The translations under genes were made by a program, and so were the position numbers. A DNA stretch of 64,000 nucleotides from Methanobacteriota archaeon (GTDB lineage: Archaea > Thermoplasmatota > Poseidoniia > Poseidoniales > Thalassarchaeaceae), in contig WTHQ01000039.1 of assembly GCA_011523055.1 (NCBI GenBank), forward strand, positions 12,263 through 76,262. The letters run 5' to 3'. Positions 39,303 through 55,219 of the stretch are shown piece after piece. The notes under the pieces were generated by a model. That model did not search any database. It had not been told where the DNA came from and was given only the letters and a program-made list of their open reading frames with translations. Each line of letters starts with the position of its first letter. Positions within the stretch are counted from its first letter, which is position 1.

Positions 39303-39362
39303 GCATTAGCCTCTGCAGAGCCGGATATAACCGTCGCTGATGTATCATCTGAATTTACATTT

Positions 39363-39452
39363 TCACGCTACCAAAGGCGTGACAGCCATGACGGCGATAG
39401 CAAATGACGCATATGTCCCAATCAGGAATGCTAGTATCGTTCCAATATTCAT
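39363..39452 (-). CDS. Candidate 29-aa single-TM peptide (below ORF-track cutoff)
   Basis: MNIGTILAFLIGTYASFAIAVMAVTPLVA*; TTCATAT 30 nt upstream of ATG; fills gap between pcc1 and nadC. Confidence 0.5.
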   Translation of the reverse strand: MNIGTILAFLIGTYASFAIAVMAVTPLVA

Positions 39453-39528
39453 AACATGGTCCATCAACGTGTGTAATATGAAGGAGTGTATTTCGAATTC
39501 CTTCCAAAAACATCCCCACTCGCGGCCA

Positions 39529-39765
39529 TTACTGGAGTATGTCTAGCGCCATGGAAGCCGCACCAAGGCAAGCGAGGATGTCATCTGCAGTTTCCTTGGC
39601 TGAAGAGAGTGATCTTGAATTGATCGTGATGGATGCGAGAAATTCGGTTCCTTGGGTGATGTATTCGATAGTGAAAGATTCAGTATCATCTGGCATGATG
39701 GATTCAATAGTCCTTGTAATCTGATCTTGGTCCCCCTTCAATTGAATCACTATAGTTGATTCCAT
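39529..39765 (-). CDS. pcc1: KEOPS complex subunit Pcc1-like protein
   Basis: 78 aa; beta-alpha(ESIMPD)-beta-beta(ITINSRSL)-long C-terminal helix layout. Confidence 0.6.
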   Translation of the reverse strand: MESTIVIQLKGDQDQITRTIESIMPDDTESFTIEYITQGTEFLASITINSRSLSSAKETADDILACLGAASMALDILQ

Positions 39766-39848
39766 GTCCTCACGATGATGTTTTCATTCTTTGACTCATC
39801 GGACATCTAGACCGATGGCCACATCAACCCCATTGCCCTCGGAGTGTT

Positions 39849-50254: not shown

Positions 50255-51847
50255 ATGGCAAAGCATAGAGCAGGGGACCGTAGGATAATTAGCATCAGTA
50301 TACCTGAAGATCTCGCATTGAAACTTGACAGGAAAGTCGGCAGAGGACGTAATGATGGTAGATCGGCCACCATAAGCAAGCTAATCGAACAAGGCCTGAA
50401 CAATACTCCTCCAAAGCCGGTTTCATCTCCACCTAAACCCGTGAATGATAATGGGCACAAGGGACTCCGAGAAGAGGTTGACTCCATCGGCATAGTAAGT
50501 GTGCCAGAGAATGCATACTATGGTGCACAAACTGCTAGGTCCCTTGAAAATTTCAATATCGGAAGGGACATCATGCCAAGATCCATGATCAGGGCTTTTG
50601 GAATCTTGAAAAAATCCACTGCACAAGCTAATGTGAAACTGGGAAATCTAGAGGAGGGTATCGGTGCGTTGATCTGTACAGCGAGTGAGGAGGTTGTTTC
50701 TGGGTCATTGGACTCTCATTTCCCCTTGCGGATCTGGCAAACTGGTTCCGGAACGCAAACGAATATGAATGTAAATGAAGTGATTTCGAACCGTTCAATT
50801 GAAATCGCGGGTGGAATCATTGGAAGTAAGGATCCTGTGCACCCAAACGACCATGTGAACAAGTCACAATCAAGCAACGACACATTCCCCACCGCTATGC
50901 ATATTTCAGCAGCAGAGGAAATTCATCATGACCTATTGCCATCTTTGGCATTACTTCGAAATGAGTTACAAAATAAGCGACAGGAGTTCGATGGGATAGT
51001 CAAAATTGGGAGGACTCATCTCATGGATGCAGTGCCCCTAACTTTGGGCCAGGAATTTTCAGGATACGTGGCTATGTTGGACGCGGATATCTCACGGATT
51101 GAGCGTGCACGAGATGGTTTGTTTGCGCTCGCCATCGGGGGCACGGCAGTTGGCACTGGCCTGAATGCCAAAGTGGGTTTTTCGGATCTGGTATGCGATT
51201 ATATAGCCGAGCATACAGGATTGCCCTTCTATTCAGCTGAGAACAAATTCTCTGCTTTGGCCGGTCATGACGCATTATTGGAGGCTTCAAGCTCGATGAA
51301 TGGATTGGCAACAAGTCTGATGAAGATAGCGAATGATATCAGATGGATGGGTTCTGGACCGAGATCTGGGTTGGGGGAGCTTTCATTGCCAGAAAATGAG
51401 CCAGGTTCTAGCATAATGCCAGGAAAGGTGAATCCGACTCAAGCCGAGGCCATAACCATGGTTGCTTGTCAAATCATGGGCAACCACACCGCGGTCACAA
51501 TAGGGGCTAGCCAAGGCAATTTTGAACTAAATGTGTACAAGCCCATGATCGTACACAATGTCCTACATTCGATTGGTCTGTTGTCAGACTCATGCAGATC
51601 CTTCTCGAAAAGGTGCGTATCTGGTTTGAAGGCTAATGAGAGCAGGATTTCTGATCTAGTGAGTAGATCATTGATGTTGGTGACGGCTCTAAACCCTCAC
51701 ATAGGTTATGACCTGGCTGCCAAAGTTGCGAAACACGCGCATGTTAATGGGACTACTTTACGTGATGCAGCGACAGAACTAGGGATTAATGGAGAAGACT
51801 TCGATGACTGGGTTGACCCCAAGGAAATGACTGGGCCTTCCAGTTGA
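50255..51847 (+). CDS. fumC: Class II fumarate hydratase with N-terminal ribbon-helix-helix domain
   Basis: [40 protein letters not shown]; N-terminal [15 protein letters not shown]...[14 protein letters not shown] plus Pro-rich linker. Confidence 0.93.
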
Positions 51848-51874
51848 CGTCGAGATGAACCTTACTGAAACCCA

Positions 51875-52540
51875 ACAAAACGAACGTTCGGAGGGAAATG
51901 ATTGATAGTCTGCTTGAGAGGACCACAATTTGTCCGATTGGACAGGTGGGAGCAACAGGGGGCTGCCTATGGGGGAGCGACCCCCTGCTGACTCCGCGGT
52001 TGGGGTTCACCCGGGCCCGAGGGCCCGGGTGTTCCCGGGTAGATGATTAGGGCGCTACTTGTCCGCCTTCACCGTTTGTCGATTGTATTAGGGTCTCCCC
52101 CATTACTCCCGCTTACGTGTTTAGTTGGTCGATATTATCTCGACTTTCCTCAACGTCCGATGCCAGTCCTCCACGGATTCCTCCGCTCTTGTTCCTGGTG
52201 CGTTTCTCTCCTGATTTTTACTCCAGGTCTTCCCCGCACTACGTTTCTAGGATTGTCTCCTCCCCCTTTCACGTCGCACCTCTGTGGGATAGTCCTCTGG
52301 TTCGGTTTTGTTTTCCCCTCGAAAGGTTCGGTTTTGTTTTCCCCAGTGTTCTCCAAGAGTAGCTTGTCTTTCTTGCGTCCGATTCGCTACCACTTGGTTC
52401 TCCCACTGTCTTAACACCCACATGTGCTAAGACTTGTCCCCGGCAATAAATTGCCGGTTTCACCGCTCCGATCATTTAGATCGGTTGTTGTGGCCCGCGG
52501 AAGGAGCCGAAGCCCTCCCACACCACTCCACCGGAGCGGC
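51875..52540 (-). ncRNA. Candidate large structured non-coding RNA, family not recognised
   Basis: No credible ORF; many helices with G-U pairs and UUCG/GNRA loops only on minus strand; purine-rich loops; TATA-like TTTATG 31 nt upstream; ends approximate. Confidence 0.6.
52299..52344. repeat. Perfect 20-nt direct repeat x2 (GGTTCGGTTTTGTTTTCCCC), 6-nt spacer
   Basis: Copies at 52299-52318 and 52325-52344. Confidence 0.9.
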
Positions 52541-52645
52541 AAAGTTCTCAGGGTCATGGGTAGTCCATAAATGTTTCTACAATATTAGAGCAGTCCACTG
52601 GAAATGAAGGTAAATACACCTATATTTCTATTCCAGAAAAAACTG

Positions 52646-53716
52646 TTATTCTTCAAATCTTAACATCCTCAACCTTGCCCTGATATTGGAGTCATCGTGA
52701 TTGGGGAATTCACTACTTTCTACTCTATTCTCGATAACGCCTGTTTCTAACAGCATTGTTTCACCAGTTGAGAAGCCAACAGACATGATGTTTCCGTGAC
52801 CGCAGTATGAGGTGACTTCGCCTTCATGTGACCAATTTATTTTCGAATTGCCAAAATCTAAGATCCCCTCAGTTGGGTTGTAATCCGTTGTGATTAATGT
52901 CATATCATCAGAGGATACCACATCACGCGCCTCAACGATCCGGATCTCAGTTTCCCCCCTCCCCTGGCCATAAATTTCCTTTATCCGAGCCGAAGTGAGC
53001 CATTGTCCGTCGTGCCTATACCCAACACACGTTGCATTGTGCTCTGTATTGTGAAGATAGCCGTCGGGATTGATCTCAAAAGCGACCTCGGATGCAGTGA
53101 GGAAGGAGATGTATCCGTTGCCTGAAGCGACAGATCGAACAATTGGTAGATTCGGTGTTCCGGTGACCGATGTGAGTTTTCCGTTCTGACTTAGCACAGA
53201 ATATACGCCAGGCTCCGGCCTTCCCAAGCCAACAATGCAATCAAATCCCCTTCCTTCCAGTGACCATGCTTTAGATGGCAACTCGATACTTTGGATTATT
53301 TTTCCATCCTTGTTTTGTAATTCATGTACTTTGCAACCAACAAAGTGACCAATTTCAATCTCGTAGACCGATGATGTTACCCAAACTGTCTTTTGGTTGA
53401 GGGTCACTAAGTCACATGCCCCATCAAAATCAACTGACCAAAGAACCTCTCCATCTTCAGATGCGAGGCAAGAGAGATATCGCCCATTGGCGACCATTAT
53501 CACTTTTTGTTGGATGCATATATCTGATATCGAGGGGTCTAGATTCTTCGACCAGGATCGATTGCCATCCGAAATGTTCCATTTAGTCAATGTTCCATTC
53601 TTGTCCCCTGCGAGGAAACTGGTGTCATTGTGAATTACAGAGGTCACTGGAGCTTCAAGAGACCTAACTATAGAGGCTATTTGGGTTAGTTTATAGTGAC
53701 CTGCCATCGGGACCAA
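52646..53716 (-). CDS. WD40/PQQ-like beta-propeller protein
   Basis: AGDKNGTLTKWNISDG..W, CL.SEDGEVLWS, VGFSTGE blade motifs. Confidence 0.7.
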   Translation of the reverse strand: MVPMAGHYKLTQIASIVRSLEAPVTSVIHNDTSFLAGDKNGTLTKWNISDGNRSWSKNLDPSISDICIQQKVIMVANGRYLSCLASEDGEVLWSVDFDGACDLVTLNQKTVWVTSSVYEIEIGHFVGCKVHELQNKDGKIIQSIELPSKAWSLEGRGFDCIVGLGRPEPGVYSVLSQNGKLTSVTGTPNLPIVRSVASGNGYISFLTASEVAFEINPDGYLHNTEHNATCVGYRHDGQWLTSARIKEIYGQGRGETEIRIVEARDVVSSDDMTLITTDYNPTEGILDFGNSKINWSHEGEVTSYCGHGNIMSVGFSTGETMLLETGVIENRVESSEFPNHDDSNIRARLRMLRFEE

Positions 53717-53719
53717 ATC

Positions 53720-55219
53720 TCATACTTTTATGCCATAGAGTCTGCTAACCTTGGAGGCGAGGTAACTCACAAATGGTTCTGGAGTTGGGGGTCTTCCGGT
53801 TGCCTCCTCGATCAATTCAGCAGGTTCGAGGATGCTTCCCCTTGTGTGAATCTTTTTCCTCATCCAATCGAGAAGGGGCCCGAACATGCCATTTCGAATA
53901 TTTTCATCGTGATCTACAATATCATTCCTCGCACTCTCCAATAATTGGGCTGCATATAAATTTCCGAGTGTGTAAGTTGGGAAGTATCCTATTGCACCCA
54001 TGCACCAATGAATATCCTGTAGTACGCCCAGCTTTCTATTAGGAGGTGATATGCCAAGATATCTATCATAATATTCATTCCAAATATCTGGTATTTGATC
54101 AACTTCTATGTCCCCCTCGATCATCATTTTTTCCAATTCATAACGTATCATAATGTGGAGGTTGTAGGTGGCTTCATCGGATTCAGTCCGAATGAAACTC
54201 GGTTGGATTTGATTGACGCTCCTCCACAGCATTTCTGGAGTAACATCATCCATTTTTCCAGGGAAAAATTCTCTCCAAAGAGGAATGACCCATTCGCAGA
54301 ATTCTAGCGATCGGCCGATTTGATTCTCCCATAGTCTGGATTGACTTTCGTGAATTCCCAAGCCACAGGCCTTTCCTGCTGGTTGATAGGCGAGGCTTTC
54401 TGGGCGTCCCTGTTCGTATGTTCCATGGCCGGTTTCGTGCATTGAACCAAACAAGGAGCCGAAGGGCTCGGATTCATCGTAACGAGTAGTCCACCTGACG
54501 TCAAAGGGATTTGGTCCCCCGCAAAAGGGATGGACAGATGAGTCTCTTCTGCCTGAGTTGAAATCGAAACCAATTGATTCTGAGACTTTTTGACTGAGCA
54601 TTTCCTGAGATTTCTTCGGCCAATTTACTCCATTGACCCATTTGTTGTCCGGAGTAACTCCGCTTTCCGAGACTAATCTGACCAACGGCGAGACGCTATC
54701 GCGGAGGCCATTGAAGAGGGGATCTAACCTCCCAACTGTCAATCCTGTTTCATATTGATCCAGAAGTGCGTTGTACGGCGAGTCTGTGTATCCAAAATAC
54801 TCGGCCTTCCTTCTAGTCATGTCCAAGATCTTGGATAGATCGTCGCGAAAAAGGGAGAAGTCATCTTTCTCGCGTGCTTCAGCCCATGTGTGATGTGCCT
54901 GGGACCTTAGCCTCGCGAAATCCTCGACGAAGTCTGATGGAAGGCACGTTGCTCTTTGGTGCGCTTTTTTTGAGATTCTCACGTTTGCCCGTTGGATCTC
55001 ATCCAAATCTTCTACTTCCAGTGATGTGATCAGCTCACCAATCCGTGGATCGGTAATCTTCTCATGAACTGTTTTTGAAATCCAAGCTAGATGTTCTGCC
55101 CTACTTTCTGCCCCATTTTTAGGCATGATGACCTCTTGGTCCCAGCCAAGCAGGCTACCTATCTGGTTCGCTAAATCAATCTCTCTGAGATGACTCAGAA
55201 GATCCGAATAGTTCTGCAT
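53720..55219 (-). CDS. Carboxypeptidase, family M32
   Basis: WDQE, HPF, HETGH, HESQSRLWEN, QDIHW, GYFPTYTLG. Confidence 0.96.
   Translation of the reverse strand: MQNYSDLLSHLREIDLANQIGSLLGWDQEVIMPKNGAESRAEHLAWISKTVHEKITDPRIGELITSLEVEDLDEIQRANVRISKKAHQRATCLPSDFVEDFARLRSQAHHTWAEAREKDDFSLFRDDLSKILDMTRRKAEYFGYTDSPYNALLDQYETGLTVGRLDPLFNGLRDSVSPLVRLVSESGVTPDNKWVNGVNWPKKSQEMLSQKVSESIGFDFNSGRRDSSVHPFCGGPNPFDVRWTTRYDESEPFGSLFGSMHETGHGTYEQGRPESLAYQPAGKACGLGIHESQSRLWENQIGRSLEFCEWVIPLWREFFPGKMDDVTPEMLWRSVNQIQPSFIRTESDEATYNLHIMIRYELEKMMIEGDIEVDQIPDIWNEYYDRYLGISPPNRKLGVLQDIHWCMGAIGYFPTYTLGNLYAAQLLESARNDIVDHDENIRNGMFGPLLDWMRKKIHTRGSILEPAELIEEATGRPPTPEPFVSYLASKVSRLYGIKV

Follow-up and report, generated by a model that had tools for sequence, protein, structure and literature searches.

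A probable stand-alone gene for a large, highly structured noncoding RNA in Poseidoniales archaea

Introduction

The bacterial OLE (ornate, large, extremophilic) RNA is about 600 nt long, is encoded on the chromosome, usually in one copy, and had a function that was long unknown. To our knowledge, large structured RNAs whose role is unexplained are uncommon, and every such RNA that has been solved has brought new RNA biology to light; as far as our literature search goes, we know of no established large structured RNA in archaea beyond RNase P RNA, signal recognition particle (SRP) RNA and ribosomal RNA. The Poseidoniales (marine group II) are among the most abundant archaea of the surface ocean and are uncultured. 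Here we analyse a 64-kb stretch of a genome of this order (the window, meaning the whole 64,000 nt analysed), in which a gap of 798 nt without a conserved open reading frame (ORF), 51848-52645, contains, with a probability that we put at about 80%, a stand-alone gene for a large, highly structured noncoding RNA (ncRNA) of ~617 nt, running on the minus strand from ~52540 to ~51924.

Two described systems are particularly close. ROOL and GOLLD, large ornate RNAs of bacteria and phages, assemble into multimers made of RNA only, according to an excerpt of PMC12286853. Within marine group II, Tan1 (Thalassoarchaea ncRNA 1) is an unknown ncRNA of 229 nt that, in the excerpted account of Hou et al. 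(2016; PMC5069720), ranked fifth in RNA-Seq, had a 'complex secondary structure' and had five homologues of 75-79% identity, all in 'Ca. Thalassoarchaea' metagenomes. In our literature search for structured or non-coding RNAs of Poseidoniales or marine group II archaea, this was the sole relevant paper, and no other paper searched named Tan1.

The RNA described here resembles OLE in its size of ~600 nt, its many conserved helices, its chromosomal and usually single-copy gene and its vertical inheritance within a lineage, but it is archaeal, far more variable in length and without an Rfam match. With ROOL and GOLLD it shares size class, ornate structure and modular expansions; unlike them, it is syntenic, single-copy and not mobile, matches no Rfam model and has no prophage or tRNA-rich context, the only tRNA of the window lying 20 kb away. 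Archaeal RNase P and SRP RNAs are likewise abundant structured RNAs from stand-alone genes with TATA promoters, but both are encoded elsewhere in this genome and the present RNA matches neither model.

Conservation and coding potential

The RNA stretch occurs in a single copy in its own genome. BLAST against 60 relatives matched it in 11/11 genomes of the same genus and in 16 further genomes of the same family. In nine of the same-genus genomes the alignment spans 668 nt or more at 80-85% identity, contig ends truncating the other two, whereas in the 16 further genomes the match is split into several collinear blocks; conserved blocks are 70-84% identical between genera. The protein encoded by the upstream beta-propeller gene, by comparison, has merely 35-55% amino-acid identity within the genus. 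A control gap at 39303-39848 is 64-72% identical, was found in 7 of the 11 same-genus genomes and in no other genus, and is not an RNA candidate on the evidence at hand. Given that the RNA stretch is better conserved than both the propeller protein and the control gap, it is under stronger constraint than its neighbours. The order of propeller gene, RNA and convergent fumarase gene was kept in all 23 loci with both flanks. The control gap, at 546 nt, is also the second-longest stretch of the window free of long ORFs; the RNA gap is the longest, as an earlier note on this DNA had claimed, but not 'by far'.

Coding potential was examined in 43 homologues, in which the longest ORFs vary in strand, frame and position, and four of which lack any ORF above 75 aa. 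Indels between sequences of the same genus comprise 114 runs of 1 nt and 14 of 2 nt, and none of 3 nt. A conserved ORF, which the earlier note had named as a finding that would speak against an RNA gene, was therefore not seen, in that no ORF is kept across these homologues.

The sole ORF of at least 100 aa in the gap (52043-52414, plus strand, 123 aa) is antisense to the RNA and shows no conservation in homologues. Annotation pipelines are likely to mis-call it as a gene. In marine group II, a mis-annotated ORF on the opposite strand often covers RNase P RNA, according to the excerpt of Hou et al. (2016; PMC5069720).

Searching the whole window with the 4227 covariance models of Rfam 15 at gathering scores gave tRNA-Cys as the only match. 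At E ≤ 10 with lax filters, positions 51700-52800 had zero matches, and eight homologous loci from other genera gave nothing relevant (one chance-level snoRNA match, E 0.066); neither OLE, ROOL, GOLLD or IMES nor any other Rfam 15 family matched the RNA region. The RNase P RNA of this genome (RF00373; G000:C37:50428-50725, 236 bits) and its SRP RNA (RF01857; G000:C25:53561-53868, 117.6 bits) lie on other contigs. We rejected identity with either, given that both models are unmatched here even at E ≤ 10. A group II intron or other mobile RNA was also considered and rejected, on account of the single genome copy, the lack of a conserved ORF and of an Rfam intron match, and the fixed synteny.

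Promoter, transcript ends and expression

The predicted transcription unit consists of the following features.

51924-52540, minus strand: RNA gene, ~617 nt; 5' end placed from the promoter and the stops of RNA contigs, 3' end tentative, from a single adapter-bearing contig end
52565-52578, minus strand: BRE/TATA promoter, a purine-rich B recognition element (BRE), AGAAACA, followed by the TATA box TTTATGG, centred ~27 nt upstream of 52540
51932-51943, minus strand: small hairpin GUCC-AAUC-GGAC directly after the conserved core, seen in the alignment tails

The arrangement GAAA-N-TTTA(T/A) is a form of the archaeal BRE/TATA promoter. The GAAACA-TTTATGG element reported earlier upstream of 52540 is present and conserved across the aligned genera, all of which retain both the TTTATGG box and the purine-rich BRE. 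Of 22 aligned loci, 21 extend this far, and all 21 have GAAA-N-TTTA(T/A) at the equivalent site, as do 7 of 11 loci from a second family of the order. The same spacing had been claimed for tRNA-Cys; this part fails, as no TTTATGG-like box stands at such a spacing upstream of that tRNA.

At the other end, the conserved core terminates with GCUCCCACCU at 51944. The position after the core is occupied in other genera by a hairpin or a U-tract, in most of them a U-tract 20-35 nt after the core, and to judge from sequence the hairpin of the window is a putative terminator. The U-run noted earlier near 51877 does exist, at 51881-51866, but the sole adapter-bearing RNA contig end on the 3' side lies at 51924. 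The exact ends given above are thus our best inference.

Transcription is indicated by marine RNA libraries. Twelve RNA runs from seven studies contain 50% or more of the words sampled from 51870-52600. When positions 50800-53800 of the window were compared with four metatranscriptomes from four studies, contigs lay over 51924-52540 in all four, and no contig from any of these runs covered the propeller side (52618-53800); thin cover of the fumarase gene appeared in one run (X2) only. Since the flanks are bare in the same libraries, DNA contamination does not explain the cover. Adapter-like loose ends, which we read as Illumina adapter, mark the 5' side at three positions (52539, 52536 and 52520) and the 3' side at one (51924); allowing for chance matches between adapter and reference, the cDNA ends lie 6-21 nt inside the predicted start. 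Contig depths (up to ~2.6e5 over the RNA vs 0-3 over the flanks) are unreliable and were not used as a measure of expression, and bare stretches were not counted as evidence beyond the plain absence of contigs on the propeller gene. The earlier note had expected an abundant minus-strand transcript with a sharp 5' end near 52540, and the libraries hold discrete contigs that are bounded by the predicted transcript and end just inside 52540, their strand being deduced rather than read.

At 52084, 52089 and 52452, the T of the window (plus strand) is a C in RNA contigs of several runs, most simply through strain variation.

Secondary structure

The RNA is numbered from G1, which is window position 52540 on the minus strand. 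This strand folds better than its complement, with a fold energy z of -7.18 vs -3.41 for the plus strand (20 shuffles each), and RNAalifold on MAFFT half-alignments predicted 55 and 44 pairs, of which 31 and 24 show compensatory changes. Our structure model of 139 pairs in 33 helices was counted on alignment A5, which holds 43 full-length homologues from eight genera (matches to both domain models were required, and two contig-cut sequences were dropped), and was compared with 500 shuffles. Paired cells made up 89.9%, vs 76.6% with shuffled and 32-42% with slid partners; changes on both sides were seen in 98 of the 139 pairs, vs 72 (shuffled) and 37-43 (slid); and the covariation score was 0.384, vs 0.173 (shuffled) and 0.06-0.09 (slid). 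None of the 500 shuffles reached any of the observed values, and compensatory changes maintain over 30 helices. Homologues and covariation, which the earlier note had proposed to look for, thus proved widespread and strong, respectively. A naive all-against-all covariation scan was dropped, having been swamped by clade-wise co-variation.

Five G.U pairs (e.g., 1-79, 19-47, 21-43, 355-368 and 550-588) are invariant or nearly so. They would read A.C on the opposite strand and therefore support the minus strand. From these pairs, the conserved promoter and the fold energy, we infer that the RNA is read from the minus strand, as previously proposed.

From 5' to 3', the model comprises the following elements, all on the minus strand.

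52522-52540, minus strand: H1, the 5'-terminal hairpin, nt 1-8/12-19, GCCGCUCC-GGU-GGAGUGGU, a signature of the family
52490-52526, minus strand: P2, a hairpin with a cUUCGg tetraloop, nt 15-51, 93.6% paired
52462-52472, minus strand: 3' strand of P1, nt 69-79, which pairs with nt 1-11 or with the nearby nt 57-66
52408-52457, minus strand: P3 and P4, nt 84-101 and nt 108-133, with a conserved UGUGG loop in P4
52284-52406, minus strand: domain closed by P5 (nt 135-140/252-257) and holding P6 and P7, helices 6-15
52164-52280, minus strand: central helices, nt 261-382, helices 16-22
52000-52156, minus strand: four further hairpins or helices, nt 385-426, 439-452, 468-496 and 503-541, helices 23-29
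51946-51997, minus strand: 3' element, consisting of GCGGAG, a long G+C-rich hairpin with a C-rich loop, and CUCCCA, helices 30-33

H1 is paired in 98.5% of cells across the 43 sequences. With positions 8 and 12 allowed to vary as Y and R, the 128 matches to the pattern had C-G there in 109 cases, U-A in 16, U.G in two and C.A in one, and one divergent genus has a U2-A18 pair. The upper part of P2 covaries (pair 23-41 is GC in 36 sequences and AU in seven) and its base is invariant. P1 (nt 1-11/69-79) is the 5' helix that the earlier note had drawn between 52530-52540 and 52462-52472. It is pair-compatible, with 93.3% of cells paired in the 43 sequences and one clear compensated pair, 3-77 (CG 35, UA 8), but it competes with the better-kept H1. 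The local hairpin nt 57-66/69-79 has compensatory changes too, and in the second family H1 is the sole option, no partner strand of P1 having been seen in the sequences inspected. The H1 and P1 folds may alternate.

Most of the remaining helices that the earlier note had drawn are found again in the homologues with covariation or compensatory changes: the CCGGCAA/UUGCCGG hairpin (P3), the GUCUUAGCAC/GUGUUAAGAC hairpin (P4, 52408-52433), the CCAAG/CUUGG arm, the GNRA hairpins GCGGA-GGAA-UCCGU and GGGG-GAGA-CCCU, the 11-bp inverted repeat at 52008-52031 and the GC-rich 3' hairpin at 51953-51990. In P3 and P4 (helices 3-5), 11 of 13 pairs change on both sides. Two further drawings had to be abandoned. 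The two halves of the CAGUG/CACUG arm belong to two other covarying helices, and the long-range helix between 52400-52410 and 51941-51952 is not supported, since nt 135-140 covary with nt 252-257 (e.g., pair 158/362 is GC in 25, AU in 12 and GU in five) and the GGAG of GCGGAG is the partner of the 3' CUCC.

Within the P5-closed domain, P6 carries a GA-rich GNRA hairpin module (nt 159-174), and P7 keeps GGAAAAC on both strands in most genera. A 19-nt direct repeat, GGGGAAAACAAAACCGAACC, which occurs twice in 52295-52345 (minus strand), supplies both strands of an internal loop in P7 that is symmetric and A-rich. The central part holds a near-invariant motif, CAAGAGCG-hairpin-CGUGGAGGA (nt 350-374), whose hairpin at nt 355-368 is 100% paired with three covarying pairs. 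By eye, this motif has no canonical K-turn, that is, no 3-nt bulge with tandem G.A pairs. Helices 23-29 are paired in 78-87% of cells each, with compensatory changes, and the 3' element is 97.2% paired in the cross-family alignment A8, with compensatory changes in 6 of 16 pairs. Its CUCC/GGAG pairing is kept across families, and by eye a flanking pair switches from U.G to G.U, with a U-A variant.

Some longer-range pairings were also considered. RNAalifold on the 43 sequences proposed a helix closing the RNA between its 5' and 3' parts (nt 20-24/591-595), which we rejected given that 13 cells break it without compensation and also because the local partner of nt 23 covaries. A candidate helix of the same fold, nt 41-47/542-547, is 100% pair-compatible, with wobble changes only. 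A pseudoknot of the C-rich 3' loop with the G-rich run at nt 274-278 was rejected, as the G-run is unconserved in one genus.

Distribution and length variation

Homologues were sought with covariance models of the 3' domain (R1), the 5' domain (R2) and the 3' element (R3). Of 74 genomes sampled from the window's family, R1 matched 52 and R2 matched 55; for the second family, the corresponding counts were 1/74 and 0/74. Four genera of the window's family without strong matches had weak ones in the right place and order when filters were off, together with 5' and 3' signatures at syntenic loci, one of these genera being recognised by the 3' element only. By one method or another, the RNA was thus seen in 13/13 sampled genera of this family. 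The family signature consists of a 5' hairpin, GCYGCUCY-NNN-RGAGUGGUG, and the 3' element with GCGGAG, long hairpin and CUCCCA. The exact 5' signature, GCYGCTCYNNNRGAGTGGTG, was found in 124 of 401 genomes of the order, vs one for the reversed control; the counts by family were 112/199, 11/199 and 0/2. Four of the 124 genomes have two matches, and the RNA is usually single-copy.

In the second family, R3 matched 9 of 41 genomes, all of them in 4 of 12 genera. Among 11 loci of this family, the propeller gene lies upstream in eight and the fumarase gene downstream in nine. Four genera in which the RNA was not found also have the propeller gene, with nothing RNA-like after it, and in one of them the propeller gene abuts the fumarase gene. 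Beyond the order, a scan of 301 genomes of the phylum with one mismatch allowed gave seven matches, no more than the reversed control, and the 5' signature was found in none of eight genomes of the sister order of the same class. A pattern scan of public contigs with the 3' motif returned at least 120 matches; nearly all of those listed were chance hits in unrelated bacteria, and only one, Poseidoniales locus L077, was a true match.

The length between the conserved 5' hairpin and 3' element ranges from ~330 to ~1250 nt. Matches to the 5' and 3' domain models lie 567-1043 nt apart, and the distance from the 5' motif to CUCCCA is 334-775 nt in the second family. Part of this variation concerns the GA-rich module, which is built from a CC/GG stem, a purine loop (GGA/GAA), a C-G pair and a GNRA loop and is present in 0-5 copies per RNA. 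The module covaries, with a C-G to G-C swap in one genus, and its core motif occurs once in the window vs zero expected. Larger changes are tandem duplications. One genus (L218, L219) has a version of ~1250 nt, lengthened by a tandem duplication of the 3' element and ~325 nt, and another (L221) has a version of ~660 nt with an internal tandem duplication of ~200 nt. The sequences thus show a body that varies, between the conserved elements at its 5' and 3' ends, through inserted and tandemly duplicated modules. Repeated purine-rich hairpin modules in variable number (0-5) are reminiscent of sponge RNAs of the CsrB/RsmZ type; the present RNA differs in that it also has a large invariant core, and we know of no CsrA-like partner in archaea.

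Function and alternative explanations

In our view, the gap holds a stand-alone gene for a large ncRNA, as the earlier note had proposed, with the fold corrected where some of the drawn helices were wrong. The RNA is a large ornate ncRNA in the sense of the class: it is longer than 300 nt, has many covarying helices, is non-coding and forms its own transcription unit. As to what it does, we tentatively favour, at somewhat less than even odds and by analogy with bacterial RNAs, a trans-acting RNA that serves as a long-lived scaffold or as the RNA of a ribonucleoprotein (RNP). In such a mechanism, the conserved core would join a variable number of purine-rich, GNRA-capped hairpin modules, proteins or further copies of the RNA could bind these modules, and the stable hairpins at both ends might shield the RNA from exonucleases and let it accumulate. 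The promoter, terminal hairpins, conserved core, module growth, single copy, vertical inheritance and presence in RNA libraries together fit a scaffold or RNP RNA better than a cis regulator, and we consider a cis regulator, or a small RNA that targets mRNAs, less likely. The remaining belief we divide among a ribozyme, an assembly of RNA only, cis effects on the fumarase gene and a protein sponge. A bolder view, that this is an order-wide archaeal counterpart of the giant ornate RNAs, distinct from anything described including Tan1, that it is a very stable RNA whose conserved 5' and 3' elements clamp a body growing by module duplication, and that it forms an RNA-only or RNA-protein nano-assembly rather than acting as a regulator, seems unlikely to us.

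Several observations weigh against the stand-alone, trans-acting RNA. The metatranscriptomic contigs carry no strand, start or reliable level information, and one contig of run X2 (51568-52053) joins the 3' domain of the RNA to the last 280 nt of the fumarase gene, reflecting either antisense read-through or an overlapping long 3' untranslated region (UTR) of the fumarase mRNA. The shuffle statistics overstate the support for the structure, given that it was derived from the tested sequences and that kin are not independent; nevertheless, the margin is large. Two folds that exclude one another, both showing some covariation, compete for the 5' domain, several of the invariant G/C-rich stretches have alternative pairing partners, and the drawn structure is not final. 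A functional link between the RNA and the propeller protein is weakened by the RNA-less genera that retain the propeller gene: this gene cannot depend on the RNA, and its persistence where the RNA is missing means that conserved synteny does not show partnership. Finally, the scaffold or RNP mechanism rests on analogy with OLE, ROOL and GOLLD in bacteria.

Other explanations of the locus fare worse. The bridging contig, together with the convergent order in 23/23 loci with both flanks and in 9/11 loci of the second family, would suit an RNA that acts in cis on the fumarase gene through antisense pairing or transcriptional collision. We find this improbable, given that antisense control needs no covarying structure of ~600 nt, that 2 of 11 second-family loci have no fumarase gene within 1.5 kb, that one genus has fumarase beside propeller with no RNA between them, and that the depth of the bridging contig, although depths are unreliable, is far below that of the contigs over the RNA body. 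A long 3' UTR or processed 3' fragment of the propeller mRNA would explain why the RNA lies on the same strand directly downstream of the propeller gene in an order kept in most genomes, but the RNA has its own conserved BRE/TATA at the right spacing, the propeller gene lacks RNA contigs in all four runs, three of 11 second-family loci have no propeller gene within 1.5 kb and four genera have the propeller gene without the RNA, which makes such a fragment very improbable. The prospect of a divergent member of a known family (RNase P, SRP, group I or II intron, OLE, ROOL, GOLLD or IMES) is equally slim. The size class fits and a GAGGAAAGUC string at nt 390-399 resembles the CR-I motif of RNase P, but the string is unconserved in other genera, Rfam gave no match at E ≤ 10 or in the eight homologues, and the real RNase P and SRP RNAs lie elsewhere. 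Least credible of all is a region that encodes one or more small proteins: ORFs of 48-123 aa do exist on both strands, but none is kept in place, frame and strand in the 43 homologues, indels are of 1-2 nt and covariation runs throughout.

A different question is whether the RNA is the same gene as Tan1, whose 229 nt would then be one well-conserved part of it. This bears on novelty only and is compatible with a stand-alone structured RNA, and we give it nearly an even chance. As far as the excerpt of Hou et al. (2016; PMC5069720) goes, Tan1 too is a marine group II ncRNA of unknown function with a complex structure that is abundant in marine metatranscriptomes, the 75-79% identity of its homologues is comparable to the 70-84% of the between-genus blocks here, and both were found in marine RNA libraries; as far as the search of the window shows, both are also absent from Rfam. 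On the other hand, 229 nt are set against ~617 nt, with Tan1 known here by description and not by sequence, and a genome can carry more than one abundant ncRNA. The excerpt reports six sequences, in contrast to the hundreds of homologues, defined promoter and synteny described here, and its account of Tan1 does not include the full length, promoter, structure, order-wide spread or 4-fold length range. We regard the RNA as a new family among the functionally unexplained large ornate ncRNAs, one that may overlap with this briefly described RNA.

Given the abundance of Poseidoniales in the surface ocean, the conservation of the RNA and its presence in marine RNA libraries, it likely matters for their physiology, and it is missed by gene-centred metatranscriptomics. 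The family also offers a ready data set for structure studies: its natural variants number in the hundreds, their lengths differ up to 4-fold and the modules are clear. Self-complementary invariant stretches (CCGCGG) could, in principle, allow the RNA to associate with itself.

Flanking genes and minor features

The gap is bounded by two genes, and a repeat lies between the upstream gene and the promoter.

50255-51847, plus strand: fumarase-class lyase gene (Lyase_1, E 1.9e-105)
52646-53716, minus strand: beta-propeller gene, with weak PQQ_2 and WD40 matches
52601-52628, minus strand: inverted repeat GGAAAT...ATTTCC between the propeller stop and the promoter, its sequence kept across genera

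The repeat is also seen in second-family loci and could be a DNA-binding site of a regulator or a 3' hairpin of the upstream gene; its conservation by sequence and not by covariation suggests the former. The propeller protein is conserved across the order, and its C-terminal end is an invariant basic motif, R-L-R-x-L-R (alignment A6). Assembled contigs end within the RNA gene in 5 of the first 30 loci (such ends were noted for L011, L016, L020, L028, L029 and L153), and assembly may break there at a highly conserved or multi-strain region.

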